NCBI GenBank assembly: GCA_028874365.1
Contig: JAPPJZ010000061.1
Span: 2,352 to 66,351, forward strand
DNA from: Chloroflexota bacterium
GTDB lineage: Bacteria > Chloroflexota > Dehalococcoidia > Bin125
Length of the DNA: 64,000 nucleotides
Reading direction: 5' to 3'
Below the pieces are notes generated by a model. It was not told the DNA's origin. It ran no database searches and worked only from the letters and a program-made list of their open reading frames with translations. The translations under genes and the position numbers were made by a program. Below are positions 39,048 to 63,725 of the stretch, in pieces. How positions within the stretch are numbered: position 1 is the first letter of the stretch; each line of letters opens with the position of its first letter.

Positions 39048-39101
39048 GCAACGCTTCTCCGGTCCCCACATCCGGTAGTCAGCACCGAACTGGATCCCGC
39101 C

Positions 39102-41490: not shown

Positions 41491-42438
41491 ATGCGAACGA
41501 AGGTGACCGTCATCGGAGCCGGAAACGTCGGCGCGACCACCGCTCAGCGGCTCGCAGAGCGCGGTTACGCCGACATCGTCCTGGTTGACATCGTCGACGG
41601 CCTGCCGCAGGGCAAGGCCCTCGATATGTACGAAGCGTCCCCGGTCATCGGCGTCGATTCCTGCATCACCGGCGCCACCGACTACGGTCCGACCGCCGAC
41701 TCCGACATCATCGTGATCACCTCTGGTGTGGCCCGCAAGCCCGGTATGTCCCGCGACGACCTGCTGCAAATCAACATGGGAATCGTCGATTCGGTGACTC
41801 GCGCCGCGATCGCCGAATCGCCTGACGCCACGATCGTCGTCGTCTCCAACCCGCTCGACGCGATGTGTCACGTCGCCTTCGACGCGGCTGATATTCCCAG
41901 CTCCCGCGTCATCGGTATGGCCGGCATCCTCGACACCGCGCGCTACCGCTCGTTCCTCGCTGAGGCGATCAACGTCTCGGTCGAGGACATCAACGCTTTC
42001 GTCCTCGGCGGCCACGGTGACACCATGGTGCCGCTCGCCTCGTACACCACCGCCGCCGGCATCCCGATCACCAAGCTGCTGCCACAGGACCAGCTCGACC
42101 AGATCATCCAGCGCACTCGCGACGGCGGCGCCGAGATCGTCAACCTGCTCAAGACCGGTTCCGCCTTCTACGCTCCGTCTGCCGCGGTGGCGCAGATGGT
42201 CGACGCGATCGCGCTCGACAAGCGCCGCATCCTACCGTGCGCAGCGCGCCTTGAAGGCGAGTACGGCGTCGACGGCCTGTTCATCGGGGTGCCGGTAATC
42301 CTCGGGCGAAACGGGATTGAGCAGATCCTCGAGATCAACCTCACCGACGATGAACAGGCCCAGCTCAAGTACTCCGCCGACGCCGTCCAGGGACTCGTCG
42401 ACGACATGGCCCGGCTCAGTCAGAACAACGGCGGCTAG
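41491..42438 (+). CDS. mdh: Malate dehydrogenase (LDH-like, NAD-dependent)
   Basis: [31 protein letters not shown]..., [26 protein letters not shown]. Confidence 0.9.
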
Positions 42439-42500
42439 ATTCGTACACATCCGAACAGGACCGAACGCTGAGAGCACCGAGACCCAGCTGAGGACTGAAC

Positions 42501-47016: not shown

Positions 47017-47868
47017 ATGACCGACTTCGGCGTATCGATGTTCCCGACCGATTATGCAGTTCAGCCACCGGAGCTGGCGCGGGAGGTAGAAGCTCGTGGC
47101 TTCGAGTCGCTGTGGTTCCCCGAGCACACGCACATCCCGACTTCGCGGATCTCTCCGTGGCCGGGCGGCGGAGACCTGCCGCAGGAGTACTGGCACACGC
47201 ACGACCCGTTCGTCTCGCTGATGGCGGCGGCGGCGGCCACCGAGACGCTCAAAGTCGGCACAGGCATCCTGCTCGTTCCCGAGCATGACGTGATCGTGGC
47301 GGCCAAGTCCGCCGCCTCGCTCGACATGATCTCCGGCGGCCGCCTGATCCTCGGAATCGGCGCGGGCTGGAACGCTGAGGAGCTGGAGAACCACGGCTGG
47401 AACTTCAAGGACCGCTGGAAGGTCACCCGCGAAATTGTGCTCGCCTGGCGCGAACTCTGGACCCAGGAAGAGCCTGAGTTCCACGGCGAGTTCATCGACT
47501 TCGATCCGGTCTGGAGCTATCCCAAGCCGGTCCAGGAAAACGGCCCCGACATTCTGCTCGGGGCGCAGTCCAAGTGGGCCTTCGACCGCGTCGTCGACTA
47601 CTGCGACGGCTGGCTGCCCATCGCGTTGCGCGGCGACATGCGAGCCGACATGGAACAGCTGAGGGCCGCGGCCGACCGTGCCGACCGTGACTTCGACACC
47701 ATCAACCGAACCGTCTTCGGGGTCGGACCGGACCCAAAGCAGGTCCAGGACCTGATCGACATCGGCTTCCAGCGAATCATCTTCGGTCTGCCGCCGGCCG
47801 ATGCCGGCACCGTGTTCCCGCTGCTCGACCGCTACGCAGAGGTCAAGGCGGAGTTCAACGGCGGCTAG
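47017..47868 (+). CDS. LLM-class F420-dependent oxidoreductase (TIGR03619-like)
   Basis: MTDFGVSMFPTDYAVQPPELAREVEARGFESLWFPEHTHIP..., GGRLILGIGAGWN; 283 aa. Confidence 0.8.
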   Translation: MTDFGVSMFPTDYAVQPPELAREVEARGFESLWFPEHTHIPTSRISPWPGGGDLPQEYWHTHDPFVSLMAAAAATETLKVGTGILLVPEHDVIVAAKSAASLDMISGGRLILGIGAGWNAEELENHGWNFKDRWKVTREIVLAWRELWTQEEPEFHGEFIDFDPVWSYPKPVQENGPDILLGAQSKWAFDRVVDYCDGWLPIALRGDMRADMEQLRAAADRADRDFDTINRTVFGVGPDPKQVQDLIDIGFQRIIFGLPPADAGTVFPLLDRYAEVKAEFNGG

Positions 47869-48676: not shown

Positions 48677-49449
48677 AAATCACGACCTGGAACGTGAACT
48701 CGATCCGGGCGCGCGAAGACCGCGTGCTCAACTGGCTTGACCAGCACCAGCCCGACGTGCTCTGTCTTCAGGAGCTCAAGTGCACCGAGGAGCAGTTTCC
48801 GTTCGACGGATTCGACGCGCTCGGCTACAACGTCGTGTTGTATGGCCAGAAGTCGTACAACGGCGTAGCGATCGTCTCGCTCGATTACCCGGATTGGGTC
48901 GAGGAAGCAGTGCCGTGGCCCGAGGACGAGCAATCGCGCGGTATCGCGGCCGAGGTCAACGGCGTGCGCGTCGTCAGTCTCTACTGCCCCAACGGCCGCG
49001 AGGTCGGTCACGAGATGTATCAGTACAAGCTGGAGTGGTTCGACCGCCTGCGATCATGGCTCGACGGACAGGATCAGTCCGGCGATCTCGTGTTGACCGG
49101 CGACTACAACATCACCTTTGACGATCGCGACGTGAACGATCCGGAATTCTGGCACGAGCGGATACTGTGTTCGACGCCCGAGCGGGATCGGCTCAATGCT
49201 CTCGTTGACTGGGGCCTGACGGACGCGCTGCGCCTATTCGACGAATCGGCTGGTGTGTACACCTGGTGGGACTATCGCACCGGCGGAGTGCAGCAGGACA
49301 AGGGATTGCGCATCGACCACCACTTGATCAGCGAACCATTGGTCGAACGTGCGGTGGCGGTCGAGATCGATGTCGAGGAGCGTCAGATGGAGGGCGACGG
49401 CGACAAACCGTCCGATCACGCGCCGGTCACACTTGTGCTAGAGGACTAG
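48673..49449 (+). CDS. xth: Exodeoxyribonuclease III
   Basis: MKITTWNVNSIRAREDRVLNWL...DVLCLQELK, C-terminal DHAPV; GTGA overlap with the upstream stop. Confidence 0.9.
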   Translation: MKITTWNVNSIRAREDRVLNWLDQHQPDVLCLQELKCTEEQFPFDGFDALGYNVVLYGQKSYNGVAIVSLDYPDWVEEAVPWPEDEQSRGIAAEVNGVRVVSLYCPNGREVGHEMYQYKLEWFDRLRSWLDGQDQSGDLVLTGDYNITFDDRDVNDPEFWHERILCSTPERDRLNALVDWGLTDALRLFDESAGVYTWWDYRTGGVQQDKGLRIDHHLISEPLVERAVAVEIDVEERQMEGDGDKPSDHAPVTLVLED

Positions 49450-50842
49450 CGTCGTTGAGACCTGCCTCTTCCAACACGGCCGCGCAGCGGATGACCGTGG
49501 CGTCGTTACCCTCGCGGGCCACGAGCTGTACCGACACGGGAAGGCCGTCAGCGTCCAGGCCGGCCGGCATTGCGATCGCCGGGGCCTGAATCAGGTTGGC
49601 CAGCGGCGTGTAGAGAATCGAGATCGTCCAGGGCGTGACGGACTTGCCCGCAATCTCGTCGATCACCGCGCCGTGTTGGTGGGCCGCGATGGCGCTGGTC
49701 GGAGTCAGCAGCACGTCGAAGTTGTCGAACCACGCGTCCATCGCTCGACTGAGCCGATCGAGCGCCGCATAGGCTTCGGCGACGCGGACGCCGGTCAATG
49801 AGCGTCCCCGTTTCAAACTGCCGAGCGTGTAGTCATTCAGCTCCTCTTCGCGGCCCACGCACATCTCGCCGTAGTTGGCTGCCGCTCCAACGGCAGAGAG
49901 CGTCGGAAAGATCTCATTCGGATCCGAGATCGGCGGTGACGCGGCAGACACTGAAGCGCCGGCTTCGCGCAGCATCGCTGCCGCCACCTCGACACGGCTC
50001 GCGATCAGCGGTTCACACGGCGTCGGCCAGCCCAGCTCGGTCGTGAGTCCGACCTGCAGTCCTTCGAGGCTCCCTGGTCTCGAGACCTCGCTCAACCGGC
50101 CGCTGGCCGCACGAGAGGCCACCGGGTCATCCGGGTGCGGTCCTGCCATCACATCGTGCATCAGCGCGATATCGCCAACTGTTCGCGCCAAGACGCCGTC
50201 GGTGGAAATCTGTGACATGCCCGCGCCGCGGGTTCGGCGTGGAATCCTCCGACCGCTCGGCTTGAATCCGATCACGCCGCAATAGGCGGCGGGCACTCGG
50301 GCTGAGCCGCCACCGTCGGTGCCGTGATGCAGCGGTCCGAAGCCGGCCGCGCACGCCGCTGCGGCTCCGCCGCTCGAACCGCCGGCGGTCCGCTCGAGGT
50401 TCCACGGATTCGCCGTCGGTGGGCCCAACCGATTCGTGGTCTGCGCCGCCAGCCCAAACTCGGACGTATTGGTCTTGCCGAGGAAGAGGGCGCCTGCGTC
50501 CCTCAGCCGTTCGACAAACAACTCGTCGCGCTGTGCCGGCTGGTGGTCAGCGACCAGCGATCCCATCGTTGTTGGAACGCGCTGAACGTCGACAAGATCC
50601 TTGATGGTGATCGGAATGCCAAGCAGAGGCGGTTGGTTCCCATCTCGCAAGCTCCACTGTCGAGCGGCAGCGTGTGCCTGCACGAGCGCAGCATCCCGGG
50701 TCTGACTGATGAACGCATTCAGCGATAGCTCAAGCGCTTCGATGCGCTCGAAGATCGCCTCGACGACCTCCTCCGGCGTAAAGGTTCGAGCCTCGTACCC
50801 GGCTCGCAGCTCTCGGGCCGAGAGTTCGTGAATCTCGGCCAT
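49427..50842 (-). CDS. Amidase (amidase-signature family)
   Basis: Ser-cis-Ser-Lys context GGSSGGAAAACAAGFGPLHHGTDGGGSARVPAAYCG; 471 aa. Confidence 0.85.
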   Translation of the reverse strand: MAEIHELSARELRAGYEARTFTPEEVVEAIFERIEALELSLNAFISQTRDAALVQAHAAARQWSLRDGNQPPLLGIPITIKDLVDVQRVPTTMGSLVADHQPAQRDELFVERLRDAGALFLGKTNTSEFGLAAQTTNRLGPPTANPWNLERTAGGSSGGAAAACAAGFGPLHHGTDGGGSARVPAAYCGVIGFKPSGRRIPRRTRGAGMSQISTDGVLARTVGDIALMHDVMAGPHPDDPVASRAASGRLSEVSRPGSLEGLQVGLTTELGWPTPCEPLIASRVEVAAAMLREAGASVSAASPPISDPNEIFPTLSAVGAAANYGEMCVGREEELNDYTLGSLKRGRSLTGVRVAEAYAALDRLSRAMDAWFDNFDVLLTPTSAIAAHQHGAVIDEIAGKSVTPWTISILYTPLANLIQAPAIAMPAGLDADGLPVSVQLVAREGNDATVIRCAAVLEEAGLNDASPLAQV

Positions 50843-52813
50843 CTACAGGTTCTCGATCTGAACCGGCTCGATATCTCCGGCCGGCGTGAACCCGAAGATG
50901 CGGCCGTAGAAGTCGAGCTCCGCCTCGGCTGCGCGCTGGATGTTGGCGGCCTGCCTGAATCCGTGCTGTTCGCCTTCGAACGCGATATAGGCGACCGGCA
51001 GACCCTTCCTGCGCAGCGCGTCGACCATTCGCTCGGCCTGGTTCGGCGGCACGATCTTGTCCTCCAGTCCCTGGAGGAAGATGATCGGGCAAGAGAGGCG
51101 GTCAACCGCGTGAATCGGAGACCGCTGCTCGTAGAGTTCTGCACGTTCGGGATAGGGGCCAATCAACGAGTCGAGGTATCGAGACTCGAACTTGTGAGTG
51201 TCTTCCGCGAGCGCCGCGACGTCGGAGACTCCGTAGTAGGACGCGCCCGCGGTGAACACATCGCCGAAGGTGAGCGCGCCCAGCGTCGTGTAGCCACCGG
51301 CTGAGCCGCCCCGAATCGCCAATCGCGACGGGTCGACATCGCCGCGCTCGACCAGAAACTTCGCAGCAGCCTCGCAATCTTCGCGATCAACGATGCCCCA
51401 ACGGCCGTTCAAGGCTCGACGGTACTCGGTCCCGTATCCGGTCGAGCCTCGGTAGTCGACATCAACGACGGCAAAGCCCCGCGTAGTCCAGTACTGGATC
51501 GCCAGGTTGAAGCCGGGACTCGTGGCGCTGGTCGGGCCGCCGTGGATGAAGGTGACCAGCGGCGGGAGTTCTCCGTCCGGCGCCCTGAAGTCCGGATTGC
51601 GCGGCGCGTAGTAGTAGGCGTGGGAGGACTTGCCGCCCGTGGTTGGATAGTCGATGGCCTCGGCGCTGGAGAAGTAGTTGGAATCGATATCAGGCGAAGC
51701 CGAGGCGCGAAGTGTCTCGATCTCGCCGTTGTCAACGTTGATCGCGACGATCGCTGCGCCAATGTCCGGCCCGGCCGCCGCGCAGATGACACGCGGTCCG
51801 CACGCCGCCGTGAAGTAGCCGAAGGTGTTGAACGGCGTCTGCAGTTCTCTCAGCACGCCCTCGTCCATGTCGATCACGCCAATCCGCCGCCCATCGGCGT
51901 TGCCGTACTGCGCGACGAGGCAGCAGTCGTCCATCACCGCGTAGGTCGACATCGAGAACTCCCACTGCGGCTGACCGAACTCGGCCTCCAACGGGAGCAC
52001 GGGCACGAGTTGGCTGCCGTCCCAACGCTGGATGTTCCACCAGCCCGACTCGTCGGAAACGCAGTACAGCGTGCCGTCCGGGCCCCACTGGGGTTCGATG
52101 ATTGAGACATCGCCTCGCGCGTCTCCCGCGATTCTTCTCGGCGCCAGCAGGGCGCCGTTCGTCGCGACCTCTGCGAGCCACAGCTCCGTAGCGTCCCAGG
52201 GCATGTTGGGATGGTTCCAACAGATCCAGGCCAGTCGGCGACCGTCCGTGCTCAGTCGGGGCGACGAGCAGAAATCGAAGCCCTCGTGTAGCCGTACGAT
52301 GTCGTCGGCCTCAGCGGCGCTACCGTCGGTGGGGATCGACGCCAGGTAGTTCTCAGCCTCCAGGCCCTCGCGGCGGTGGTCCTCCGCGACGCAGATCAGG
52401 CGTCCGCGCGCGTCGTCAACGGCGGCGTCGGCGTAGCGCACTGGAAGCTCGGGCGTCAATGGCGTCGGTTCCTCCGATCCGTCCACCGGACGCCGGTACA
52501 GGCGCTGGTCAGCAAAGTTGGAGAAGTAACCCACACCGTTTGAAACGGCGAACGAGCCGCCGCCGTACTCGTGAACCAAGGTCCTGGCGCTGTAATCCGT
52601 TGTTGTGACTTCGCTCAGTTCGCCCGACGCGGAGTAGCGCATGGCCGCGTATCGGCCATGCTCGTCCGGGCGCGACTCCACCCAGTAGAGGTCGTCACCG
52701 TCAACGTCGAGCTCGTCGAAGCGCAACGCTCCGGCGGTCAGCAACTCTGTTGCGACCGGCGACTCCCATGAGCCGTATGGCGCGATACGCGGCTCGGTCG
52801 AATCTTGACTCAT
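50843..52813 (-). CDS. S9-family serine peptidase (acylaminoacyl-peptidase/prolyl oligopeptidase-like) with N-terminal beta-propeller
   Basis: C-terminal alpha/beta hydrolase region TFIHGGPTSATSPGFNLAIQYWTTRGFAVVDVDYRGSTGYG and nucleophile elbow GGSAGGYTT; 656 aa. Confidence 0.85.
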   Translation of the reverse strand: MSQDSTEPRIAPYGSWESPVATELLTAGALRFDELDVDGDDLYWVESRPDEHGRYAAMRYSASGELSEVTTTDYSARTLVHEYGGGSFAVSNGVGYFSNFADQRLYRRPVDGSEEPTPLTPELPVRYADAAVDDARGRLICVAEDHRREGLEAENYLASIPTDGSAAEADDIVRLHEGFDFCSSPRLSTDGRRLAWICWNHPNMPWDATELWLAEVATNGALLAPRRIAGDARGDVSIIEPQWGPDGTLYCVSDESGWWNIQRWDGSQLVPVLPLEAEFGQPQWEFSMSTYAVMDDCCLVAQYGNADGRRIGVIDMDEGVLRELQTPFNTFGYFTAACGPRVICAAAGPDIGAAIVAINVDNGEIETLRASASPDIDSNYFSSAEAIDYPTTGGKSSHAYYYAPRNPDFRAPDGELPPLVTFIHGGPTSATSPGFNLAIQYWTTRGFAVVDVDYRGSTGYGTEYRRALNGRWGIVDREDCEAAAKFLVERGDVDPSRLAIRGGSAGGYTTLGALTFGDVFTAGASYYGVSDVAALAEDTHKFESRYLDSLIGPYPERAELYEQRSPIHAVDRLSCPIIFLQGLEDKIVPPNQAERMVDALRRKGLPVAYIAFEGEQHGFRQAANIQRAAEAELDFYGRIFGFTPAGDIEPVQIENL

Positions 52814-52903
52814 CGTTGCCCCTCACTCGCTGCAAACCTGCAATCATCGTATGCGAGCGTCAAGATCCGGGCTTCCGCCAGGGCGGACAACGGAGGAACA
52901 GCG

Positions 52904-55786
52904 TTGGCCGAACACACTCGACCATCGGCGCGCACCACGATTGAAGCGGCTCAACGAGCCAGCAGTGACCGACGTCTGGTCGATGCCCCGCTGGCTGCAG
53001 ACGTGCGCTTGCTGAGCAGCCAACTGGGGAACACGATTCGCCGGGTTGACGGTGACGAAGTCTTCAACGCCGTCGAGGAACTGAGAGGCCTAGCCCAACG
53101 GCGTCGCGGCGTACGGCAGGAGCCCGAACCCCAGCTCACGGCTGAGATCGCCAAGCTGGTGAAAAGCTGGCCGCTGTGGTTGGCTGCCGAGGTCGGCAAT
53201 GCCTTCCTGACCTACTTCCTGCTCACGAACACGGCAGAAGAGACTCACCGCATTCGGCGTCGACGGCTGCGATCTTCAAACTCGCACGCGGCGCCTCGAT
53301 CGATACCAGCGGTCGTGGAGCAGCTACTTTCGCAAGGCGTCAACGAGGAGACCATTCGCGCCCAGGCATCGGGCATACACCTGCAACCGGTCTTCACCGC
53401 CCATCCGACCGAATCCCAGCGACTCACTATGCTTGGCACGCTGCAAGACGTGCATCAGCTGCTGCTGGAGCGTGAACGGGCGATTCCCTCGGAGTTGGAT
53501 GAGATCGATTCAGCCCTGCGCATGCACATTGAGGGGCTCTGGCAGGCGGATCACCTGCGCTACCGGAGGCCGACCGTGCTCGAAGAGTCACGCCTGTTGC
53601 TGCGGACGTTCGAGACCACGCTCTGGGAGGCCGTCCCTGATGTCACCCGTCGCTTCCGCCGAGCCACCGGCGTGCAACCCGAGGACGCACCGGCGCCGAT
53701 CGTGCTTGGTTCGTGGATGGGCGGTGACGCCGACGGCAATCCCAACGTCACGCCGGATTTGACCTGGCAGACCGCACTGACGATGCGGGCAACAGTGCTG
53801 CGATTGCACCTGGGCGCGGTTCGCGCCATGGATTCGATGCTGCCCCACTCCGTACGGCGAGTCGCGGCCTCTTCCCGGCTGGAAGATTCATTGCAACGCG
53901 ACGCCAGGCGGATGCCGCGCGTGCATGACCGTCTCGAGCGCCGCAACGCGGCGGAGCGCTATCGACACAAGATCCGTTACATGGCGGCTCGTCTGCAGGC
54001 GACGCTCGAGGCCGACTATGCGCTGCTCGATACGCGCGCGGCAAGCATCCACGACTCGAGATTGACCACGACGGAGCCGGACGGCGTACCGTACGACTCG
54101 GTCGGCGATTATATCGATGACCTGGACGCGATCGCTGAGAGCCTGCGACTGCACGGCGCAGACTCCGGGGCCGAGACGGTCGTGCAGCCGCTGATCGATC
54201 GGGCGAAGTCATTCGGGTTCCACCTCGCAACGCTCGACATCCGCGACCACGCCGCGCAGTTCCACGCCGCGGCCGATGAGGTGCTGAAGGGGCTCGACAT
54301 TCAGCCGCCCGGCGGCAGCTACCTGGAGCTGAGTCCGGACCAGCAGGAGGAGTTTCTCGCTAGTGAGCTCGATCGGGACTACTTCCCGGTCGGTCACGCG
54401 ATATCGACACACGACGACGACACGCTGCGCCGGTTCCGCACGGCGCGACGCATTCAGCGCATCTGCGGCGCGGACGCCGTCCAGACCTGCATCGTCTCGA
54501 TGGCCTCGACGGCGGCCGACGTCCTCGCGCCGGTGCTGGTCGCCAGACAGGCAGGCCTCAACGACATCGGGCTTCGCGCGCCCGGAGGCGGCATACGTAT
54601 CGCGCCGCTGTTCGAGCGTGTCGCCGACCTCGATCGAGCACCAGCTGTGCTGCGCTCACTGTTCGGACACGGCGCCTATCGACGCCACCTGAAGGCGCAC
54701 GGCGACCTGCAGGAGGTGATGGTCGGGTATTCGGACTCGGCCAAGGACGCCGGTGTGTTGCCCTCGCTCTGGGGCCTGTATCGCGCCCAGGACGCCATGC
54801 ACGAAGTAGCCCGCGAGGCGGGCGTTGACTTGATGTTCTTCCACGGTCGAGGCGGGACGGTCAGCCGCGGCGGTGGACCGTCGCACGACGCGATTCTCGC
54901 GCTGCCCCCGCACACGACAGAAGGCGGAATCAAGTTCACCGAACAGGGCGAGATGATCCAGTTCACCTACGGCATGCCGGGATTGGCGAAGTGGAACCTG
55001 GAGCAGACGGTAGCGGCAACGTTGGTGAAACGGTTCGACCGCGACCACGATGACGCACCCGACGCCGACAGGGGACGCTACCACGAAGCGATGGAGGAAC
55101 TGGCCGAGACGGCCGAGCGAGCGTACCGGTCGGAAGTCGTGGACAATCCGGACCTTCACGCGTACTTCCAGCGCGTGACGCCGATCGGCATGCTGGGCAA
55201 TCTGGCGATCGGCTCGCGTCCGACGTTCCGTCCCGGTACGGACGCCAGCCTGACATCGCTGCGAGCGATTCCCTGGGTATTCGCATGGATGCAGACGCGG
55301 CACGTGATTACGGGCTGGTTGGGTGTGGGCGCCGCGCTCGAGCAGTTCGTCGAGCGTCATGGCGCATCGGGAGAGGCGCTGTTGAAGGACATGCGCTCGC
55401 GCTGGCCATTCTTCACCACGCTGCTCTCGAATGTGGAGATGGTCCTGGCCAAGGCCGACTTCGATGTCGCCGAGCACTATGCCGCCACGCTCGGAGACGG
55501 GGACCACGATTTGCGCACGTTCCGAGGTCTGCGCGATGAGTACCAGCGCACGGTCAGAATGATCAACCGGCTAGCGGAGCAGGACCGGCTGCTGGACAAG
55601 TCGCCGGTGCTGCAACGCTCTATCGCCCTGCGTAACCCCTACGTCGACGCGTTGAGTTTCCTGCAGGTCGAACTGCTGAACCGCATCCGCGATCTGCCAG
55701 AGGACGATCCGGAGTACTCGGAGACGCTGGAGGCGATCCTGCGCAGCGTCAACGGGGTCGCAGCGGGATTGCGCAACACCGGCTAG
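52904..55786 (+). CDS. ppc: Phosphoenolpyruvate carboxylase
   Basis: VFTAHPTE, GSWMGGDADGNPNVT, FHGRGGTVSRGGGP and the C-terminal ...NTG. TTG 52904 chosen (GGAGGA 5 nt upstream; no in-frame ATG for >100 codons); the ORF track starts at 52805 and would overlap the divergent peptidase. Confidence 0.9.
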   Translation: MAEHTRPSARTTIEAAQRASSDRRLVDAPLAADVRLLSSQLGNTIRRVDGDEVFNAVEELRGLAQRRRGVRQEPEPQLTAEIAKLVKSWPLWLAAEVGNAFLTYFLLTNTAEETHRIRRRRLRSSNSHAAPRSIPAVVEQLLSQGVNEETIRAQASGIHLQPVFTAHPTESQRLTMLGTLQDVHQLLLERERAIPSELDEIDSALRMHIEGLWQADHLRYRRPTVLEESRLLLRTFETTLWEAVPDVTRRFRRATGVQPEDAPAPIVLGSWMGGDADGNPNVTPDLTWQTALTMRATVLRLHLGAVRAMDSMLPHSVRRVAASSRLEDSLQRDARRMPRVHDRLERRNAAERYRHKIRYMAARLQATLEADYALLDTRAASIHDSRLTTTEPDGVPYDSVGDYIDDLDAIAESLRLHGADSGAETVVQPLIDRAKSFGFHLATLDIRDHAAQFHAAADEVLKGLDIQPPGGSYLELSPDQQEEFLASELDRDYFPVGHAISTHDDDTLRRFRTARRIQRICGADAVQTCIVSMASTAADVLAPVLVARQAGLNDIGLRAPGGGIRIAPLFERVADLDRAPAVLRSLFGHGAYRRHLKAHGDLQEVMVGYSDSAKDAGVLPSLWGLYRAQDAMHEVAREAGVDLMFFHGRGGTVSRGGGPSHDAILALPPHTTEGGIKFTEQGEMIQFTYGMPGLAKWNLEQTVAATLVKRFDRDHDDAPDADRGRYHEAMEELAETAERAYRSEVVDNPDLHAYFQRVTPIGMLGNLAIGSRPTFRPGTDASLTSLRAIPWVFAWMQTRHVITGWLGVGAALEQFVERHGASGEALLKDMRSRWPFFTTLLSNVEMVLAKADFDVAEHYAATLGDGDHDLRTFRGLRDEYQRTVRMINRLAEQDRLLDKSPVLQRSIALRNPYVDALSFLQVELLNRIRDLPEDDPEYSETLEAILRSVNGVAAGLRNTG

Positions 55787-55796: not shown

Positions 55797-56255
55797 CTAG
55801 TCGACGACTTCCCAGTGGACGAGGGTGAACGGGTCGATCTCGTCGTTTCCCTCGTGGTCCTCGAAATAGGGCCGAACTTTGGCGCCGATCTCGACCGTCT
55901 GCATCGGGTCGCCGACGAGATTGCCGACCATGCGCACGTTCTCGTGATTGGGCAGCTCGACCAGCACAACCAGGTACGGACAAGAATCTTGCAACGCCGG
56001 ATGCACCGGATGCCAGACGCGCTCCCACGAGTAGATGCGTCCGTTGCCCTCGACCGACTTCCAGCCGAGGTCGAACGAGTGGCAACGGTGGCAATTCCAC
56101 TCGGGACCGAACTGCGGCCGATCGCAGGTGTTGCAGTTCTGGACAAGCAACTCGTGCCGCTTGACCGCTTCCCAGTACTCGGTGTCGAGGCCATCAATCG
56201 CCGGAGCGGGCGCGGGCATGCCCTCGCCCAGGTAGTAGGGTCCGGGATTCGCCAT
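55797..56255 (-). CDS. DUF35-family protein (Zn-ribbon + OB-fold; partner of SCP-x thiolases)
   Basis: CxxC...CxxC ribbon (CNTCDRPQFGPEWNCHRCHS) then OB-fold. ATG 56255 overlaps the thiolase TAA (TAATG). Confidence 0.75.
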   Translation of the reverse strand: MANPGPYYLGEGMPAPAPAIDGLDTEYWEAVKRHELLVQNCNTCDRPQFGPEWNCHRCHSFDLGWKSVEGNGRIYSWERVWHPVHPALQDSCPYLVVLVELPNHENVRMVGNLVGDPMQTVEIGAKVRPYFEDHEGNDEIDPFTLVHWEVVD

Positions 56256-57436
56256 TAGAGCACCGCCTCGGAACCGACGATCATGTCGGACACCGGCGTC
56301 ACCATCGGACCCGACGCGACCAGCGACACATTCACATCGTCGACCTGGTTGCAGGACTCGCCGCGCACCTGGCGCACGGCCTCGATGTTCAGTTCCAGAC
56401 CGTGCATGTAGCACTCGGCGAGGTTGCCGCCGCTGGTGTTGATCGGCATCTTGCCGCTCGGCGCGACCAGGTTGTCGAAGGTGATGAACTCGTTGGCCTC
56501 TTCGTAGGTGGTCAGGCCGTGTTCGATGATGCTCATCACGACCCCGCCAGTGAAGTTCTCGTAGACCTGAGCAACGTCGACCTCCTCCGGCTTGACCTGC
56601 GCCATGTCGTACATGCGCGGCGCAACCGTCTTGAAGTTAGAGGTGGCGTAGTCGGTCGCGTTATGCGAGCCGGAACCGGCGCGGTTGCCCGAGCCGACCG
56701 CGCCGCCGAGGAAGTAGACCGGCGTCTTGGCGTAGTCCTTGGCCCGGTCGGCCGAGACGAAGATCATCGCCGCGGCGCCGTCGTTCTCCTGGCAGCAGTC
56801 GAACAGGTGGAACGGCTCGACGATCCAGCGCGAGGCGTCATAGTCCTCGGGCGTCAGCGGACGACCGTACATCACGGCACGCGGATTGTTCTGTGCGTGG
56901 TGATACGAGGCTAGGGAGCATGCCTTGAGCGTGTCCTGGGTAATGCCGTGGTCCTCGTACAGTCGGTGAATCCGCATGGCAAACGACTGCGCCGGCGACA
57001 TCAGTCCGTATGGCGCCGTGTAGGCCTGGTCGCCGCGCACGTGCGGTACGCGAGCGCCCTGCCCGAAGCGTCCGAACTGTCCCTGCGCCAGACCTCGGAA
57101 GACGACTACGGTGTCGGCGAGGCCAGTGGCCACCGCCGACGCCGCGTGAGCGCAGGCCGCCGAGCCGCCGCCGCCACCGCCGCCCCACTCCATGTTGGAG
57201 AAGCGCAGGTCCTTGATGTCGAGCGCCGCGGCGATCCGCGACGGATCGTTGCGGTCGTTGGAGTACGAGGCAAAGCCATCGATCTCACGCGGGTCGATTC
57301 CCGCATCGGCGCTGGCCTTGAGAATCGCCTCGATCACGAGCTTAAACTCCGGATCCGGAGAGCGACCGCGCTTGTAGTAGGTCGTTTCACCGACGCCGAT
57401 GATCGCCACTTCGCCGCGCATCGTGCGGTTACCCAT
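56255..57436 (-). CDS. Thiolase-like protein, SCP-x / nonspecific lipid-transfer-protein thiolase type
   Basis: GEVAIIGVGETTYYKRGRS..., glycine-rich NMEWGGGGGGGSAACAHAA; 393 aa; no N-terminal CoA-acetyltransferase Cys motif of biosynthetic thiolases. Confidence 0.8.
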   Translation of the reverse strand: MGNRTMRGEVAIIGVGETTYYKRGRSPDPEFKLVIEAILKASADAGIDPREIDGFASYSNDRNDPSRIAAALDIKDLRFSNMEWGGGGGGGSAACAHAASAVATGLADTVVVFRGLAQGQFGRFGQGARVPHVRGDQAYTAPYGLMSPAQSFAMRIHRLYEDHGITQDTLKACSLASYHHAQNNPRAVMYGRPLTPEDYDASRWIVEPFHLFDCCQENDGAAAMIFVSADRAKDYAKTPVYFLGGAVGSGNRAGSGSHNATDYATSNFKTVAPRMYDMAQVKPEEVDVAQVYENFTGGVVMSIIEHGLTTYEEANEFITFDNLVAPSGKMPINTSGGNLAECYMHGLELNIEAVRQVRGESCNQVDDVNVSLVASGPMVTPVSDMIVGSEAVL

Positions 57437-57564
57437 CTGACTGTCCTTCCCTGCGCACCTCTAGCGGATGCGCATCGACTGTTGGACGAACCCGTGATCG
57501 AAACTGCGGGCCTTCGCGCGCAGTTTACTTGATGATCGAACCTCGACCGTACGTCAGCCGCCGG

Positions 57565-60042
57565 TTATTGCAGCGCGCCTGCGACCAGTGCGTCAGCGAT
57601 CTCATCTTCGGGCACCGACAGGATTTCGGAGAGCACGTAGTGAGTGTGCTCGCCAATCGCCGGCGCGGCCCGCCGCAGACGCGCCGTCCCGTCCGAGAAC
57701 CGGGTGACGAGGCCGTCGTACGGCGTCGGCCCCATGACCGAGTGGTCGAGCGTGACGAAGAAATCCCGATGCGTGAGCTGGGGATCCTCGTACAGGTCCG
57801 ACGGCCATTCAACGATCGACGCGGGCACACCGGCAGCGATGAGCACGCCAACGACGGCATCCGCTGTCTGAGGCGCGCACCATTCGGCAACCGCCGCCTC
57901 GATCTCGGCCTTGGCCGCGATCCGCGTTGACAGGTCGTCGTACTCGCTGCCGGACCAGTTCTCAAGGCCCGCCGCGTCGCGAAGGGCGTGCCACTGTTCG
58001 GCCGTTTCTGTCGCGATCGCCACGTAGCGTTCCTCGTCACCGACTCGGAACACGCCGTTGGGCGCCGCGTAGAGCGAGCCATGGCCTGGAGCATCGGCGA
58101 CACGGCCGTTCTCGAAATAGTCGAGCAGCAGCGGCGCGTTGAAGTGGATTCCCGCCTCGGTCTGCGCCAGGTCGATGTATTGCCCTTTGCCCGTCATGTC
58201 TCGATAGCGGATCGCCGCGGCCAGCGTGCCGGATCCGAATCGAGGGTTGATGAAGTCGGTGTACGCGCCCCAGGTGCCGGCTGGCTGTCGGTCCGGCCAT
58301 CCGGTGATCCGGTGCAAGCCGGACAGGCAGGCGCCCTGTAACCCGAATCCTGCATAGCTCGACTCAGGACCCCACTGTCCGCGCAAACAGGTGCTGAGCA
58401 TGATGATCTCAGGACGTTCCTCGCTCAGCGTCGCGTAGTCGAGACCGAAGCGCTTCAGCGTGCCGGGCGTGAATGACTCCACGACCACGTCGGCCCAGTC
58501 GACTAGTTGTCTGGCATAGGACAATCCCTGCTCGGTGTCGAGCCGGAGCGCGACACCGAGTTTGGACGAGTTGAAGTTGGCCATGAACTGAGCACGGTCG
58601 AGCCCTGGTTGGTTGTCCTTGAACGGCGGCGCCAGACGCAGCACGTCGGGACGCGTCGCCGACTCGATATGCACCACCGTCGCACCGTGATCGGCCATCG
58701 ACTTTGAGATCAGCGGGCCAACGCCGACCCAGGCGAAGTCGGCGATCTTGACGCCGGAGAGCGCGCCACCGTCGTGGCCGCGCACGCCGTTGGAGGACGC
58801 TGGCGTCCGTGCGGTTCGCTTCGGTGCGCGCCTGACGTCGGACAGCAGGTGCTGATCTTGTCCCATCGCCGGAGCGGGCCGAGCCAGCTGCAACGGCGTC
58901 TCCGATAGCTTGGCAAATGGGCCGGGATAGCGCTTGCCGTCCAGCTCCACCCAGTAGTCCCGCGCTTCCAGGTGCTTGTCGCGGGCGATGTCCTCGACCG
59001 TGTACAGCGGCGCGAGCATGAAGCCGTCCTTCACGGCTCGCGCATAGCATTCGGCCATCGTCCGCTTGGCTACGAAGTTGTGCAGGACTTCATTGGCGAC
59101 CGCCATCATTCTGCCCGCTTCTGCCGGATCCTCCATCGCAGCGCGACCGAGGGCGGCCGCCCATTCATCGATGTCGGCGCCTTCCAGCTCACCGCTCAAC
59201 TCGCCGCTCTCCCCGATCCACTTCATCACTTTGGTCGAGTGGCGCAGACCCAGTCCGCCGGGCACGATGCTGAACGTGACGTAGCCGTCCGCGCACGGAT
59301 GGATTGGGAACACGGCGGGCCCTTCCAACACACCGACCGCTCGGTCGGCGCAGGTGCCGGGCGGATCTCCGCCCGTGTTGGGTGGGAACCCGGTCGCGTG
59401 CATCAGGGTCCAGACGATCGCCGCCTGCATTGAGACGTCGAGGTGTTGCCCCCTTCCGGACAGGTCACGCTCACGTAGGGCGATCGCGGTATCCGCCGCC
59501 GCCTGCACGCCGGAGTGAATGGCTGCCTGTGGATATCCCACCGGTATCGGCGGTCTGTCGCCTTCGCCCTGCAACCCGACCAGTCCGCCGGCGGACTCGA
59601 TCGTCAACTCCGTCGCCGGACGGTTGGCCCACGGTCCATCCTGCCCATAGGGCGTGACCGAGACGTAAATCAGATCGGGATGCTCTGCCTTGACCTCGTT
59701 GTAGCTCAATCCCCAGTCGGCCATGGTCCCCGGATCGAACGACTCGATCAGGACGTCGGCGGTGCCGAGCAGGGCTCGGAAGTCGGCGCGACCCTGTTCG
59801 TCGTCGAGGTCGATAATCACGCTGCGCTTGCCCAGTCCCATGGCGGCCCAGTAGAGGGAACGCCCTGGATCCTGTTCGCTGAACGGGGGCATCTCACGCG
59901 ACGGCGTTCCCCAGGGCGGCTCAACCTTGATCACCTCGGCGCCCATGTCGGCAAGCACACGGCCGGCCATCTCGGCCCGTGAGGTCGCCAGGTCAATCAC
60001 GCGCACTCCGCCCAGCAGGGTGTTCGACGCCTCACTTGTCAT
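57565..60042 (-). CDS. Fused tandem double family-III CoA-transferase (two CaiB/BaiF-type domains in one 825-aa chain)
   Basis: Domain 1: GVRVIDLATSRAEMAGRVLADMGAEVIKVEPP...ADVLIESFDPGTMADWGL. Domain 2: LSGVKIADFAWVGVGPLISKSMADHGATVVHIES...ADVVVESFTPGTLKRFGL. ATG 60042 chosen because GGAG lies 8 nt upstream. Confidence 0.8.
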   Translation of the reverse strand: MTSEASNTLLGGVRVIDLATSRAEMAGRVLADMGAEVIKVEPPWGTPSREMPPFSEQDPGRSLYWAAMGLGKRSVIIDLDDEQGRADFRALLGTADVLIESFDPGTMADWGLSYNEVKAEHPDLIYVSVTPYGQDGPWANRPATELTIESAGGLVGLQGEGDRPPIPVGYPQAAIHSGVQAAADTAIALRERDLSGRGQHLDVSMQAAIVWTLMHATGFPPNTGGDPPGTCADRAVGVLEGPAVFPIHPCADGYVTFSIVPGGLGLRHSTKVMKWIGESGELSGELEGADIDEWAAALGRAAMEDPAEAGRMMAVANEVLHNFVAKRTMAECYARAVKDGFMLAPLYTVEDIARDKHLEARDYWVELDGKRYPGPFAKLSETPLQLARPAPAMGQDQHLLSDVRRAPKRTARTPASSNGVRGHDGGALSGVKIADFAWVGVGPLISKSMADHGATVVHIESATRPDVLRLAPPFKDNQPGLDRAQFMANFNSSKLGVALRLDTEQGLSYARQLVDWADVVVESFTPGTLKRFGLDYATLSEERPEIIMLSTCLRGQWGPESSYAGFGLQGACLSGLHRITGWPDRQPAGTWGAYTDFINPRFGSGTLAAAIRYRDMTGKGQYIDLAQTEAGIHFNAPLLLDYFENGRVADAPGHGSLYAAPNGVFRVGDEERYVAIATETAEQWHALRDAAGLENWSGSEYDDLSTRIAAKAEIEAAVAEWCAPQTADAVVGVLIAAGVPASIVEWPSDLYEDPQLTHRDFFVTLDHSVMGPTPYDGLVTRFSDGTARLRRAAPAIGEHTHYVLSEILSVPEDEIADALVAGALQ

Positions 60043-60150
60043 TTCGATGCTCCGATCTGGAAACTCTGTCCGATCCGACCGACATGCCAAACTCACCTGC
60101 GCCGTTCGCAGGGATTCCCAGCAAGATACCGAAGGTCGCGGGTTTGCGGT

Positions 60151-60381
60151 CTACAGGACCAGGAACATCCTGATCAGGACCGAGAACACGCCGAAGACCA
60201 GCAGCGCGGCGAGAATCCACCAGAGCAATCGAGGCGCATCCTCGCGCGGCTCGTCCGCCCGATTCTCATGGTCGATCCAGTGAGCATGGCGCTCGGGAGG
60301 TGGTCGACGGCGACGCGCCCCGGGCGAGTCCGGCGCGGGCGGCGGCCAAGCGTCTCCGCCGTTGCGCGGGGCTTCCGCCAT
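60151..60381 (-). CDS. Candidate small tail-anchored membrane protein (76 aa; Pro/Arg-rich N-terminus, single C-terminal TM)
   Basis: GGAG 7 nt upstream of ATG 60381. Strongly coding-like GC3. TM helix LLWWILAALLVFGVFSVLIRMFLVL. No homologs recognised. Confidence 0.35.
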   Translation of the reverse strand: MAEAPRNGGDAWPPPAPDSPGARRRRPPPERHAHWIDHENRADEPREDAPRLLWWILAALLVFGVFSVLIRMFLVL

Positions 60382-60524
60382 CTCAGGCTCCTTGCTCGAG
60401 GCATCCTCGATCGGTGATGCCAGTCTAGTCAGCCCTGTCCCGGCAGGGAGAAGGCTCATTCCTGCGCGTAATCAGAGCTGCGACTAGCCTTTGGTTGAGC
60501 AGAAATCAGGAACCGGAGTCTCCC

Positions 60525-61406
60525 GTGGCCCGCATCCTCGTCACTTCCACGCTCGCCCGAGACGGCAAGTCGGTTGTTGCCGCCGGGCTCGGGGCTGCGC
60601 TGCGAGCAACTGGCGCGACTGTCAGACTCGCGCGAGTGGACGATGGGGATTCCGCCGCATCCGACGCGCGTCAGTTCTCGCGAGTCAACGGCGTTCGCGC
60701 GACGTCTGAGCCGGTCTCTGCTTCCGACATCCCGAATGACACTGACCACGTTGTGATTGAGGCAGCCTCAGCCGAGGGCGTCGACGCCGATCGAACCTTG
60801 CTCGTCGTTCGACACGGCGAAGCCGACGACGACACCGTCGCTCGGGCGCTGTCCGAGACCCAACCCGACGCTGTGGTCGTGAATGGCGTCCCGGAACACG
60901 GCGGACCCGCGGCGATGGCCCGGATTGCCGAACTGGGTGGGACCGACATCGCCGCCGTTCCTCAGGATCGACACCTCGCCGCGCCCACCGTGCGCGATAT
61001 CGCTCCCGCCGTGGAGGGCGAGCTTTCAGGCGATGAAGACCTGTTTGATGAGGCCGCTCGGGACCTTGTGATCGGTCCGGTCAGCGCACACGAGGGCATG
61101 GATTACTTCCGCAAGTACCCGGACAAGACCCTGGTCACGCGCCATGACCGGATCGACATCGCGCTCGGCGCGCTGGACTACGAGTCGCTTTGTCTGATCC
61201 TCGCCGGTGGCGAGCCAACCTTGCCGTACGTTGCGCAGCGCGCCGAACGTGAGTCGTTTGCCCTGATCACCACGTCGCAGAGCACGCTGCAAGCGGTCGA
61301 ATCGATTGGGCCGCTGTACGGCAACTCCGCGTTCGTCGGTGAGCGGAAGCTGGCCACTGCGATCGAAATCGTCTCGGCCAACGTCTCAACTCAGGCGCTC
61401 ACCTAG
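60525..61406 (+). CDS. Stand-alone Pta-N-terminal-like protein (BioD-like P-loop-less domain + DRTGG domain)
   Basis: ARILVTSTLARDGKSVVAAGLGAALRATG resembles the Pta N-terminal domain. C-terminal LVTRHDRIDIALGALDYESLCLILAGG matches the DRTGG-type region. GTG 60525 with GGAG 9 nt upstream; TTG 60495 also possible. Confidence 0.55.
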   Translation: MARILVTSTLARDGKSVVAAGLGAALRATGATVRLARVDDGDSAASDARQFSRVNGVRATSEPVSASDIPNDTDHVVIEAASAEGVDADRTLLVVRHGEADDDTVARALSETQPDAVVVNGVPEHGGPAAMARIAELGGTDIAAVPQDRHLAAPTVRDIAPAVEGELSGDEDLFDEAARDLVIGPVSAHEGMDYFRKYPDKTLVTRHDRIDIALGALDYESLCLILAGGEPTLPYVAQRAERESFALITTSQSTLQAVESIGPLYGNSAFVGERKLATAIEIVSANVSTQALT

Positions 61407-62065
61407 AGCTTCCTCAACAAGGTCAGCCCGTCACCGACCGTCAGTTGGACGGAGTCGACGCGCCGATCATCAGTGACGCGTCGGTTGAACGCATCGATTG
61501 CGCGGGTATCAGGATCGCTGGCGTTGCGATCCACGACCTCTCCGCCCCACAGCGTGTTGTCGACAACGATGAGTCCTCCATCGCGCAGCAACGCCAGCAC
61601 GCCCTCGAAGTAGCTCCAGATCGGTTCCTTGTCGGCGTCGATGAATGCGAAGTCGAAGAGGCCGGCTCCCTCGCGACGCAACTGCGCGAGGGTGTCGAGC
61701 GCCGGACCCAGCCTGAGATCGATCTTGTGACGAACGCCGGCTTCGGACCAGTAGCGGCGCGCAATCGATGTCCACTCATCGCTCAGATCACAGGCGACGA
61801 GCCGACCGTCTTCAGGCAGCGCCTGCGCCACAGCCAGCGCCGATGCACCGGTGAACGTGCCGATCTCCAGGGCGCGACGCGCCCCACTCAGCCGAGCAAG
61901 CCAGCCAAGCAGACGAGCCTGATCGGCACCGATCTGCATTCCGCCGGCGGATAATCTCGATGTCTCTGCGCGGAGTCGGCTCCAGACATCGTCCTCTCTG
62001 GTGGATGCCTCTTCGATGTACTGGGCGAGCTCAGCGGTGACGGATACGGTCCTGATCGAGGTCAT
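61403..62065 (-). CDS. Class I SAM-dependent O-methyltransferase, family 3 (caffeoyl-CoA OMT-like)
   Basis: LEIGTFTGASALAVAQALPEDGRLVACDL, FDFAFIDADKE, GGLIVVDNTLWGG. Confidence 0.85.
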   Translation of the reverse strand: MTSIRTVSVTAELAQYIEEASTREDDVWSRLRAETSRLSAGGMQIGADQARLLGWLARLSGARRALEIGTFTGASALAVAQALPEDGRLVACDLSDEWTSIARRYWSEAGVRHKIDLRLGPALDTLAQLRREGAGLFDFAFIDADKEPIWSYFEGVLALLRDGGLIVVDNTLWGGEVVDRNASDPDTRAIDAFNRRVTDDRRVDSVQLTVGDGLTLLRKL

Positions 62066-62531: not shown

Positions 62532-63725
62532 ATGCCGCCGCTTCCGCCAACGCATGAGGCCGGGCGGGAGCTGATCGAGCGGCTGACGCCGCACGCCGAG
62601 TTACTGTCGGAACAGGCAGAGGCGCGCGATCGCGACGCCGGATTCCCATTCGTGTCGTTCGATCTCTTGCGCGAGATCGGCTGGATCGCCGCTCCGATTC
62701 CACGCGAGTACGGCGGCGGCGAGTGTTCGTTGGCCGACCTCGTCGCTGCCCAGACCGCGTTAGCCAAGATCGACATGGCACTCGCCTTCTCCTGCGGCAT
62801 GCACCTGATGTCGGTCGGTTCCGAGCGTTCGAACCGCAACTGGCCCGCACAGATCCGTGAGCGCATTTTTCGCTCCGTCGTCCAGGAAGGCGCACTCTGC
62901 AATCAGGTTGCATCGGAACCGGAGCTCGGCTCGCCGCAGGGCGGCGGACGACCGAAAACGGCATTGACGCCAGACGGACCGGGTCGCTGGCGGATCAATG
63001 GGCGTAAATCGTTCACCACGCTCGCGCCCGACCTGACCTGGTTCCTTACCTATTGCGCGCTTGAGGATGGCTCGGGCATGCTCGCCCGGGTCGCTGTTCA
63101 CCGGGACTCGCCGGGTTTGCGCATTGAGGAGACCTGGGACGTCGTCGGGCTGCGCTCGACGGGCTCGCACGACGTCTGGTACGACAACGTCGCGATCACC
63201 GACGACGAGTTCCTGGTCAAGCAGGATCCGGGCCGGGCCGGGCAACGGCACGGTGACTTCGCCTGGTTCGCGCTGCTCGTTTCAGCGGCATCCCTCGGGG
63301 TTGCCGAGGCAGCACGCGACTACACCGTCCACTTTGCACGCCATCGCCGCCCCGGCGGCGCTCCCGGCGTGATCGGCAGCCTGCCGACCGTACGCGCGCA
63401 GGTCGGGGAGATCGATCTGCGAATCATGACTGCACGCGCCTTACTGCACGAAACCGCGTCGGCCTGGGACACGCTCGACGTCGAGTCAAGGGGCAGTCTT
63501 GGGCCGCGCGTCGCAGCAGCGAAACTGCACACCGGCGACACCGCTGTCGACATCGTCGATCGCTGTATGCGCCTGGTCGGCGGAATCTCGCTGCACCGTT
63601 CCGAGCCGCTGGAGCGCTACTACCGAGATGTCCGGGGACCGCTGCACAACCCGCCGATTACGCCGCGCGGACTCGAAGTGATTGCCTCCGCGGCGCTCGA
63701 TCCGCTGCCCGAATCTACTTCTTGA
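62532..63725 (+). CDS. Acyl-CoA dehydrogenase-family protein
   Basis: Three-domain ACAD layout; C-terminal ...RCMRLVGGISLHRSEPLERYYRDVR. Confidence 0.8.
   Translation: MPPLPPTHEAGRELIERLTPHAELLSEQAEARDRDAGFPFVSFDLLREIGWIAAPIPREYGGGECSLADLVAAQTALAKIDMALAFSCGMHLMSVGSERSNRNWPAQIRERIFRSVVQEGALCNQVASEPELGSPQGGGRPKTALTPDGPGRWRINGRKSFTTLAPDLTWFLTYCALEDGSGMLARVAVHRDSPGLRIEETWDVVGLRSTGSHDVWYDNVAITDDEFLVKQDPGRAGQRHGDFAWFALLVSAASLGVAEAARDYTVHFARHRRPGGAPGVIGSLPTVRAQVGEIDLRIMTARALLHETASAWDTLDVESRGSLGPRVAAAKLHTGDTAVDIVDRCMRLVGGISLHRSEPLERYYRDVRGPLHNPPITPRGLEVIASAALDPLPESTS

Follow-up and report, generated by a model that had tools for sequence, protein, structure and literature searches.

A fused two-domain family III CoA-transferase with a single predicted catalytic site in an uncultured Dehalococcoidia bacterium

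Described relatives of the fused transferase

Two-domain coenzyme A (CoA)-transferases of family III (CaiB/BaiF/Frc), in which two transferase domains are joined in one chain, are represented by the characterised enzymes DddD and PtmU4, and the protein analysed here is an uncharacterised member with this published architecture. It is encoded in a stretch of 64,000 nucleotides, hereafter called the window, of contig JAPPJZ010000061.1 (positions 2,352 to 66,351; assembly GCA_028874365.1) from an uncultured Dehalococcoidia/Chloroflexota bacterium, a group in which such transferases have expanded into many paralogues. Our preferred reading, to which we give a probability of roughly 75%, is that this protein is a type III CoA-transferase in which an aspartate (Asp)-less and a catalytic subunit type, as found in the heteromeric enzyme BbsEF, are fused into a chain with one active site, with the chemistry and the link to a neighbouring pathway proposed below.

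DddD was the sole characterised two-domain member before the work of Dong et al. (2018), who assembled a similarity network with 2401 two-domain proteins; the traits of the group are tandem CoA-transferase domains, a poorly conserved linker and a conserved catalytic Asp in the C-terminal domain (PMC6006322). In the same study, mutants of PtmU4 at Asp430 were inactive, DddD formed an outgroup to the bulk of the two-domain proteins, and the homologues of PtmU4 in the 'thioacid group' all belonged to Actinobacteria, Betaproteobacteria and Gammaproteobacteria (PMC6006322). The CaiB domains of DddD from Endozoicomonas occupy residues 1-416 and 439-821 (PMC7174347). In SAR202 bacteria, CaiB/BaiF paralogues are greatly expanded, with DddD as the top Swiss-Prot match of some members, and this expansion has been proposed as the basis on which they break down recalcitrant dissolved organic matter (PMC5395668). 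The novelty implied by an earlier sequence-only reading of this DNA is therefore absent, the architecture having been known since DddD and catalogued in 2018. A broad literature search for fused family III enzymes returned irrelevant papers only, and one for Rv1866, a possible two-domain protein of mycobacteria, yielded nothing on function.

DddD and PtmU4/PtnU4, which were compared with the window protein by architecture and context and not by sequence identity, share with it the tandem CoA_transf_3 domains, a chain of about 800 residues, the poorly conserved linker and the catalytic Asp in the C-terminal domain. Unlike them, the window protein is encoded beside genes for an aldolase related to lipid-transfer proteins (Ltp) and for a DUF35 protein, without ddd or ptm genes, and belongs to the phylum Chloroflexota (Dehalococcoidia). 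A second point of comparison is succinyl-CoA:(R)-benzylsuccinate CoA-transferase, BbsEF (PDB entries 9fn0, 9fol and 9fun), which consists of an Asp-less and an Asp-bearing subunit, the latter carrying the D178-CoA adduct, and is reported to be an α2β2 assembly (Leutwein and Heider 2001). In both sequence and structure the N half of the window protein resembles chain A of this enzyme and the C half chain B; however, BbsE and BbsF are separate polypeptides. The bbs pathway also resembles the locus in that the enzyme acting after BbsEF, BbsAB, has a thiolase fold and a zinc-finger subunit of the DUF35 type. It differs in its dehydrogenase, hydratase and alcohol dehydrogenase genes (BbsG, BbsH and BbsCD), which have no counterpart in the window unit, and in its thiolase-fold protein, since that of the window is far nearer to the steroid side-chain aldolase Ltp2 than to BbsB. 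The papers examined on BbsEF contained nothing on subunit roles.

Architecture and active site of the 825-residue protein

The gene lies in an uninterrupted open frame spanning 60096..57565 on the reverse strand. Its start was assigned to the ATG at 60042, which is preceded by GGAG 8 nt upstream and agrees with the N-termini of homologues, and the resulting product of 825 residues is 100% identical to the database entry 'CoA transferase [Chloroflexota bacterium]'. The Pfam profile CoA_transf_3 (PF02515) matched the protein twice with a summed score of 546 bits against a cut-off of 23.3, and the second stretch (residues 428-800) covers profile positions 1-366 of 366, a full-length match that places the protein in family III. 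The N half (residues 13-396) pairs end to end with residues 8-381 of 9fn0_A (E 6.9e-38 for the N half alone) and was also aligned with 4ed9, while the C half (427-817) pairs end to end with residues 8-401 of 9fn0_B (E 1.1e-64). A Rossmann-type N-terminal motif is found in each; it reads GVRVIDLA..AGRVLADMGAEVIKVE in the first and GVKIADFA..ISKSMADHGATVVHIE in the second, and the halves share 32% identity across about 200 residues of the large domain (E 9e-25). The description of the protein as two complete CaiB-type domains of about 400 residues, fused head-to-tail, was thus borne out. Coordinates are collected in Table 1.

Two sets of homologues were used, an alignment of 22 close homologues (A1) and a wider set of 143 full-length homologues at 31-100% identity. 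The linker is variable in sequence and gapped in the former, and in the latter 14-64 residues separate positions 396 and 430. Tandem domains, a variable linker and an Asp in the C-terminal domain, here conserved in 142/143 homologues, are all present, so that the window protein has each of the three traits of the two-domain group. Matches to NCBIfam were restricted to one-domain equivalogs below threshold, the N half matching succinate-glutarate CoA-transferase and the C half succinyl-CoA:mesaconate CoA-transferase; they fall far below the cut-offs and are insufficient for naming a substrate.

The two halves are unequal with respect to the catalytic residue of family III, the presence of which in each half the sequence-only reading had proposed to check. 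It is found in the C domain as Asp596, in the motif AYTDFINPRFG, which is aligned to D177 of 4ed9 and to D178 of 9fn0_B, the latter number being counted from the alignment; 'D178-CoA adduct' stands in the title of PDB entry 9fol. In the N domain the position is taken by Ala174, in the motif PQAAIHSG, opposite Asp in 4ed9 and YfdE and opposite Tyr in 9fn0_A. Among the close homologues the N-domain position is A, S or G and never D, while the C-domain Asp is invariant. In the wider set the N-domain residue is Y (34), F (27), W (21), A (15), S (13), H (7), E (5), T (5) or D (3), with at most 3 occurrences of any other, which amounts to an aromatic Y/F/W in 82 sequences, A or S in 28, and a residue other than Asp in 140/143. 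Because the N half carries Ala174 and the C half Asp596, one catalytic site per chain, located in the C domain, is predicted rather than two.

Conservation is somewhat lower in the N half than in the C half, with a mean identity to the window protein of 36.7% vs 41.5% and the lower value in 127/142 comparisons. It is constrained nevertheless, since 25 of its columns are at least 90% conserved in the 143 homologues. Around the lost site (residues 169-184; 59491-59538 on the reverse strand), Q172, H176, G178, Q180, A181-183 and D184 are invariant in the close homologues; in the distant ones Q172 is retained in 112/143 and D184 in 24/143. Such conservation points to a retained role of the 'dead' site, and the Asp-less domain may have gained a second catalytic or substrate-channelling role, by analogy with DddD, which combines transferase and lyase activities. 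The N half is not a degenerate, decaying duplicate; it falls in an ancient line of partner subunits lacking the Asp, which includes BbsEF chain A and the corresponding genes of the split relatives described below.

An AlphaFold2 (AF2) model computed on the 22-sequence alignment had a mean predicted local distance difference test score (pLDDT) of 83 and a predicted template modelling score (pTM) of 0.89 across all 825 residues, with low confidence in the linker (50-65). In Foldseek searches the C half matched BbsEF chains B and D with a template modelling (TM) score of 0.91 and a root-mean-square deviation of 2.3 Å, and the N half matched 9fn0_A with a TM score of 0.80; dozens of further family III members were also matched, and the fold of a large Rossmann-like and a small domain was recovered. 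Sequence identity to the BbsEF chains is 27-33%. So high a pTM for the whole chain means that the relative placement of the halves is predicted with confidence, and the intramolecular pseudo-dimer that had been suggested for this protein is supported by the model as the most reasonable reading. That the halves interlock, and that the active site is formed by the large domain of the C half together with the small domain of the N half, we infer from homology and the pTM.

Table 1. Features of the transferase gene and its surroundings (positions in the window)
Feature	Coordinates	Strand	Remarks
Two-domain family III CoA-transferase gene	57565..60042	-	one open reading frame, 825 aa, two CoA_transf_3 stretches
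N-terminal domain, residues ~1-405	58828..60042	-	complete family III fold without catalytic Asp; predicted BbsEF chain-A-like partner domain
Inter-domain linker, residues ~406-426	58765..58827	-	poorly conserved; pLDDT 50-65
C-terminal domain, residues ~427-825	57568..58764	-	predicted catalytic domain, BbsEF chain-B-like
Ala174 codon, catalytic-Asp position of family III	59521..59523	-	aligned with Asp of 4ed9 and YfdE, Tyr of 9fn0_A
Asp596 codon, predicted catalytic nucleophile	58255..58257	-	alignment with D178 of 9fn0_B
Thiolase-fold gene, predicted Ltp2-type retro-aldolase	56255..57436	-	best solved relative 6ok1_A, TcLtp2
DUF35 gene (zinc ribbon and OB fold), 152 aa	55797..56255	-	Pfam zf-ChsH2 and OB_ChsH2_C
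Small conserved open reading frame, 102 aa, directly upstream of the CoA-transferase gene	60151..60459	-	56-86% identity, same place in 42/80 loci
DRTGG-domain protein	60495-61406	+	upstream of the unit, syntenic in close clade
Caffeoyl-CoA-type O-methyltransferase	61403-62065	-	PF01596, 218 bits; syntenic in close clade
Acyl-CoA dehydrogenase	62532-63725	+	upstream of the unit, syntenic in close clade

Distribution and origin of the fusion

A scan of one genome per species with two family-specific peptide patterns yielded 451 loci, of which the best 80 were compared (individual loci are numbered with the prefix L). The phylogenetic survey that the sequence-only reading had called for was thereby carried out: the fusion is conserved as a single continuous tblastn match in 80/80 loci, at 52-94% identity, many of them on closed chromosomes of long-read metagenome-assembled genomes (MAGs). 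The hosts are mostly Dehalococcoidia/Chloroflexota MAGs, with a few Myxococcota, Hyphomicrobiales and Tepidiformales. At the protein level, a length of at least 760 residues was found in 113/120 best protein clusters and in 125 of the 150 best representatives at 50% identity, the latter aligning end to end at 31-50% identity. Since the form with a single open reading frame (ORF) recurs across loci and protein clusters, the fusion is judged from these comparisons to be old, widespread and diverse.

Multiple paralogues of the two-domain transferase occur per genome. Two separate loci (L081 and L084) belong to one MAG, assembly GCA_050248655.1, where the neighbours are acyl-CoA dehydrogenase, MaoC and electron transfer flavoprotein genes for one paralogue and enoyl-CoA hydratase genes for the other. 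On one metagenome contig (L089), two such genes (254-2554 and 4379-6841) lie on either side of a cytochrome P450 gene.

A tblastn search against plasmids brought up relatives encoded by two genes, and their subunits were aligned with the halves of the window protein. Among plasmids the strongest match, at 35% identity across 94% of the query length, is a gene pair on plasmid 2 of Aromatoleum aromaticum EbN1, in which, as in the window, the Asp-less part comes first and the Asp-bearing part second. It differs from the window in consisting of two genes, which overlap by 4 bp, instead of a fusion, and in its position beside UbiD/UbiX/UbiD decarboxylase genes. The anaerobic phthalate pathway employs a succinyl-CoA:phthalate CoA-transferase together with a UbiD/UbiX decarboxylase (PMC9516798), and the EbN1 pair is probably this transferase, an assignment based on the pathway description in the literature and not on gene identifiers. 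A plasmid of Rhodococcus sp. DMU1 carries two CoA-transferase genes, a lipid-transfer protein gene and a gene for an OB-fold (DUF35) protein in one strand-wise block, the same four parts as in the window. Its Ltp-like protein is 38% identical to that of the window, and the nucleophilic Cys is missing there too. However, the transferase is split into abutting genes in the reversed order, the Asp-bearing gene being first, and the block belongs to a large catabolic cluster with P450, short-chain dehydrogenase/reductase and acyl-CoA dehydrogenase genes and a second thiolase/OB-fold pair. A match in Paraburkholderia (H6), considered as a single-piece two-domain protein that might serve as a proxy for DddD, was rejected, the ORFs in this unannotated record representing another split pair.

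Two groups emerge from the comparison of subunits. The Asp-less group, consisting of the window N half, EbN1 gene 1 and Rhodococcus gene 2, has internal identities of 30-36% (36% between the N half and EbN1 gene 1, 33% between the N half and Rhodococcus gene 2), and the Asp-bearing group, consisting of the window C half, EbN1 gene 2 and Rhodococcus gene 1, has internal identities of 35-37%, the C half sharing 37% with each of its two counterparts. Between the groups the identity is 21-27%. Because these values lie below those within the groups, each half being nearer to a different subunit lineage of the split enzymes than to its partner half, a recent internal tandem duplication was rejected. 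By sequence, the window protein appears to unite in one chain two subunit types of a heteromeric enzyme that diverged long ago; alternatively, the split forms arose by fission of such a fused protein.

Aldolase/DUF35 pair, proposed function and alternatives

Downstream of the transferase gene lies a pair of genes encoding a thiolase-fold protein and a DUF35 protein. Among solved structures the former is most similar to TcLtp2 (6ok1_A), with an E value of 1.9e-71 compared with 5e-15 for the true thiolase BbsB. A run of Gly residues occupies the position of the nucleophilic Cys of thiolases, the Tyr of 'VYENF' is aligned to Ltp2 Y294 (YENF here and YDHF in Ltp2, a replacement of His by Asn), and the Tyr of 'ECYMHG' is aligned to Ltp2 Y344. 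In Ltp2, Y294 and Y344 are the catalytic base and acid (PMC12329534). Because the nucleophilic Cys is missing, both Ltp2 Tyr residues are kept and Ltp2 is the best relative, the pair probably forms a retro-aldolase complex, and a true thiolase at this place was rejected. The claim that the transferase gene lies upstream of a thiolase-DUF35 pair thus stands as regards its position and the DUF35 protein, while the presumed thiolase is probably an Ltp2-type aldolase.

Solved relatives of the DUF35 protein are 9myr_B and 6ok1_B, ChsH2(DUF35). Its start was placed not at 56414, to which the mechanical ORF list had extended the frame, but at an ATG at position 56255. This codon overlaps the stop codon TAA of the preceding gene (TAATG), suggesting that translation of the aldolase-like protein and that of the DUF35 protein are coupled. 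The pair, known in the window from its genes, resembles the Ltp2-ChsH2(DUF35) complex (PDB 6ok1) in the Cys-less thiolase fold, in the Tyr residues at the Y294 and Y344 positions and in the DUF35 partner. It differs in the YENF motif noted above, in the absence of steroid catabolic genes nearby and in its free-standing DUF35 protein of 152 residues, a domain that in ChsH2 forms the C-terminus of a MaoC hydratase. In the syntenic clade (L001-L057) the Ltp2-like protein is 87-99% identical, compared with 68-93% for the CoA-transferase and 62-94% for phosphoenolpyruvate (PEP) carboxylase, which indicates an unusually strong constraint.

The usual acyl-CoA donors of such transferases are succinyl-CoA and acetyl-CoA. 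In the proposed mechanism the N and C domains would pack together like the interlocked dimer of the family to give one active site per polypeptide, which the large domain of the C half, with Asp596, would form and over which the small domain contributed by the N half would close. The acyl-CoA donor would acylate Asp596 to form a mixed anhydride, the released CoA thiolate would attack the anhydride to give an Asp596-CoA thioester, and CoA would then be passed to the incoming carboxylate to form the CoA ester without consumption of ATP. The acyl-CoA product, or a hydrated derivative of it, may then go to the complex of the Cys-less Ltp2-like aldolase and DUF35 protein, a step proposed with moderate confidence from the genomic context, and this complex would cleave a 3-hydroxyacyl-CoA to a carbonyl compound and acetyl- or propionyl-CoA. 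The released short acyl-CoA could act as the next CoA donor.

Several findings connect the transferase with the aldolase pair. The transferase gene is separated from the thiolase-fold gene on the same strand by only 128 nt (57437-57564), and the order transferase, Ltp-like protein, DUF35 protein is kept at all loci with an identity of 68% or more; the exceptions are L032, where the pair is missing, and L017 and L036, which are clipped by contig ends. The order is also kept in L051, L054 and L066, at 53-55% transferase identity, and an independent version of the four parts, in split form, recurs on the Rhodococcus plasmid. On balance a functional link between the transferase and the Ltp-like/DUF35 pair is slightly favoured. 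Other findings count against this link or against the scheme as a whole. Unrelated genes, namely those for PEP carboxylase and an S9 peptidase, show the same degree of synteny in the close clade, so that much of the synteny there reflects shared ancestry, and in some relatives unrelated genes, such as that of a Uma2 endonuclease, stand between the transferase and aldolase genes. Most of the distant two-domain homologues are found elsewhere, among genes for acyl-CoA dehydrogenase, MaoC, electron transfer flavoprotein, enoyl-CoA hydratase, P450, one-domain CoA-transferases and transporters. A promoter and terminator scan of 55.6-60.7 kb gave nothing above chance, with no signal either way in the 128-nt gap, and the unit contains no hydratase or dehydrogenase gene to form a 3-hydroxyacyl-CoA. 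The interlocked pairing and the active site composed of the N-half small and C-half large domains are predictions from homology and the pTM, and the Asp-less N domain of the close clade keeps Q172, H176, Q180 and D184 invariant around a site that should be dead.

These points bear most directly on the alternative that the protein is a genuine one-site two-domain CoA-transferase that has no functional connection with the Ltp-like/DUF35 pair and is its neighbour by shared ancestry. This would account for the equal synteny of PEP carboxylase and S9 peptidase, for the insertions in L007, L035, L037 and L038, for the absence of the pair from L032 and for the occurrence of paralogues in many other contexts, and the higher identity of the thiolase-fold protein (87-99% vs 68-93%) would suggest a different selective regime. 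We nevertheless regard it as rather doubtful, since the same four-part arrangement, in split form, is present on a plasmid of another phylum, the association persists to 53-55% transferase identity, and strand, order and close spacing are shared. Another alternative is that a frameshift or a lost stop, arising in sequencing or assembly, merged two neighbouring CoA-transferase genes. Relatives with abutting or overlapping gene pairs do occur, in EbN1 (plasmid 2), Rhodococcus DMU1 and Paraburkholderia, but the single ORF recurs in all 80 loci from independent assemblies, closed chromosomes included, and in the 113 of 120 clusters mentioned above, and the linker is in frame across all aligned homologues. 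The frameshift, which the sequence-only reading itself had named as its possible refutation, is therefore vanishingly improbable.

A different division of labour, with both halves catalytically competent and two active sites free to diverge in substrate or CoA-donor specificity as originally suggested, would suit the complete fold and the Rossmann-type motif of each half as well as the purifying selection on the N half. It is contradicted by the Ala at position 174, with Asp in 0/22 close homologues and 3/143 of the wider set, and the counterpart subunits of the split relatives (9fn0_A, EbN1 gene 1 and Rhodococcus gene 2) are Asp-less too, so that two sites per chain are very improbable. The protein might instead be an orthologue of DddD, a CoA-transferase/lyase that releases dimethyl sulfide from dimethylsulfoniopropionate, which would be in keeping with a host among the Chloroflexota that is marine or sponge-associated. 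Size and architecture agree with the domain limits of DddD (PMC7174347), the top Swiss-Prot match of some CaiB/BaiF proteins of SAR202 is DddD (PMC5395668), and related MAGs are labelled as marine metagenome bins, the derivation from sponges being our own inference. However, the genes typical of ddd operons, for a BCCT transporter, a LysR regulator and alcohol and aldehyde dehydrogenases, are missing from the scanned parts of 37.4-64 kb; the actual neighbours encode the Ltp-like aldolase, the DUF35 protein, PEP carboxylase, the DRTGG protein, the O-methyltransferase and the acyl-CoA dehydrogenase. Moreover, DddD is an outgroup to most two-domain proteins (PMC6006322), and both halves agree well with chains of BbsEF and with phthalate-type subunits, which makes orthology with DddD quite improbable. 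A thioacid-forming enzyme of the PtmU4 type would likewise have this architecture and an essential Asp in the C-terminal domain; yet no sulfur-carrier (ThiS/MoaD-like), acyl-CoA synthetase or natural-product cluster genes occur in the scanned stretches, and thioacid-group homologues are restricted to the three lineages named above (PMC6006322), leaving this function extremely improbable.

In the preferred reading of a BbsEF-like protein with one site, the fusion would hard-wire the heteromer of a silent and a catalytic subunit into one chain, with no two independently evolving sites. It places a large, almost wholly uncharacterised enzyme group of Dehalococcoidia beside DddD, PtmU4 and BbsEF, and the recurring pairing with the Ltp2-like aldolase/DUF35 genes offers a concrete two-step pathway. 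A bolder extension, which we consider unlikely, is that the locus encodes a compact ATP-independent module for C-C cleavage, in which the transferase would activate a 3-hydroxy or alicyclic acid, the aldolase/DUF35 complex would cleave it and the acetyl- or propionyl-CoA formed would re-prime the transferase, or that the N domain has a second role. If true, this would be a self-sustaining cycle, so far undescribed, through which Dehalococcoidia that are marine and possibly associated with sponges exploit recalcitrant organic acids. What retains interest is the pairing with a Cys-less aldolase and DUF35 protein, the conserved surroundings of the dead N-domain site and the substrates of the expanded family in marine Dehalococcoidia.

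The DNA inserted between the transferase and aldolase genes in some relatives (8472-11150 in L038, 8351-9409 in L007, and in L035 and L037) measures 0.8-2.7 kb and contains a gene of the Uma2 endonuclease family or ORFs without a Pfam match. As nothing else was found, the inserted ORFs were rejected as clues to the pathway.

Within the scanned parts of the window the surrounding genes are a mix of central metabolism and unrelated functions. The sole family match of the 102-residue ORF upstream of the transferase gene is a below-threshold one to DUF6264, and its membership of the unit is uncertain. Genes of central metabolism are located at 37449-43889 (+) and 52805-55786 (+) and encode a carboxyltransferase of the propionyl-/acetyl-CoA carboxylase type, aconitase, malate/lactate dehydrogenase, class II fumarase and PEP carboxylase, the gene for the last of these being convergent with the DUF35 gene. 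Between them lie genes for a luciferase-like flavin monooxygenase (47017-47868, +), an amidase (49427-50842, -) and a protein of the S9 prolyl-oligopeptidase family (50843-52813, -). The enzyme class of this monooxygenase is expanded in SAR202 (PMC5395668).

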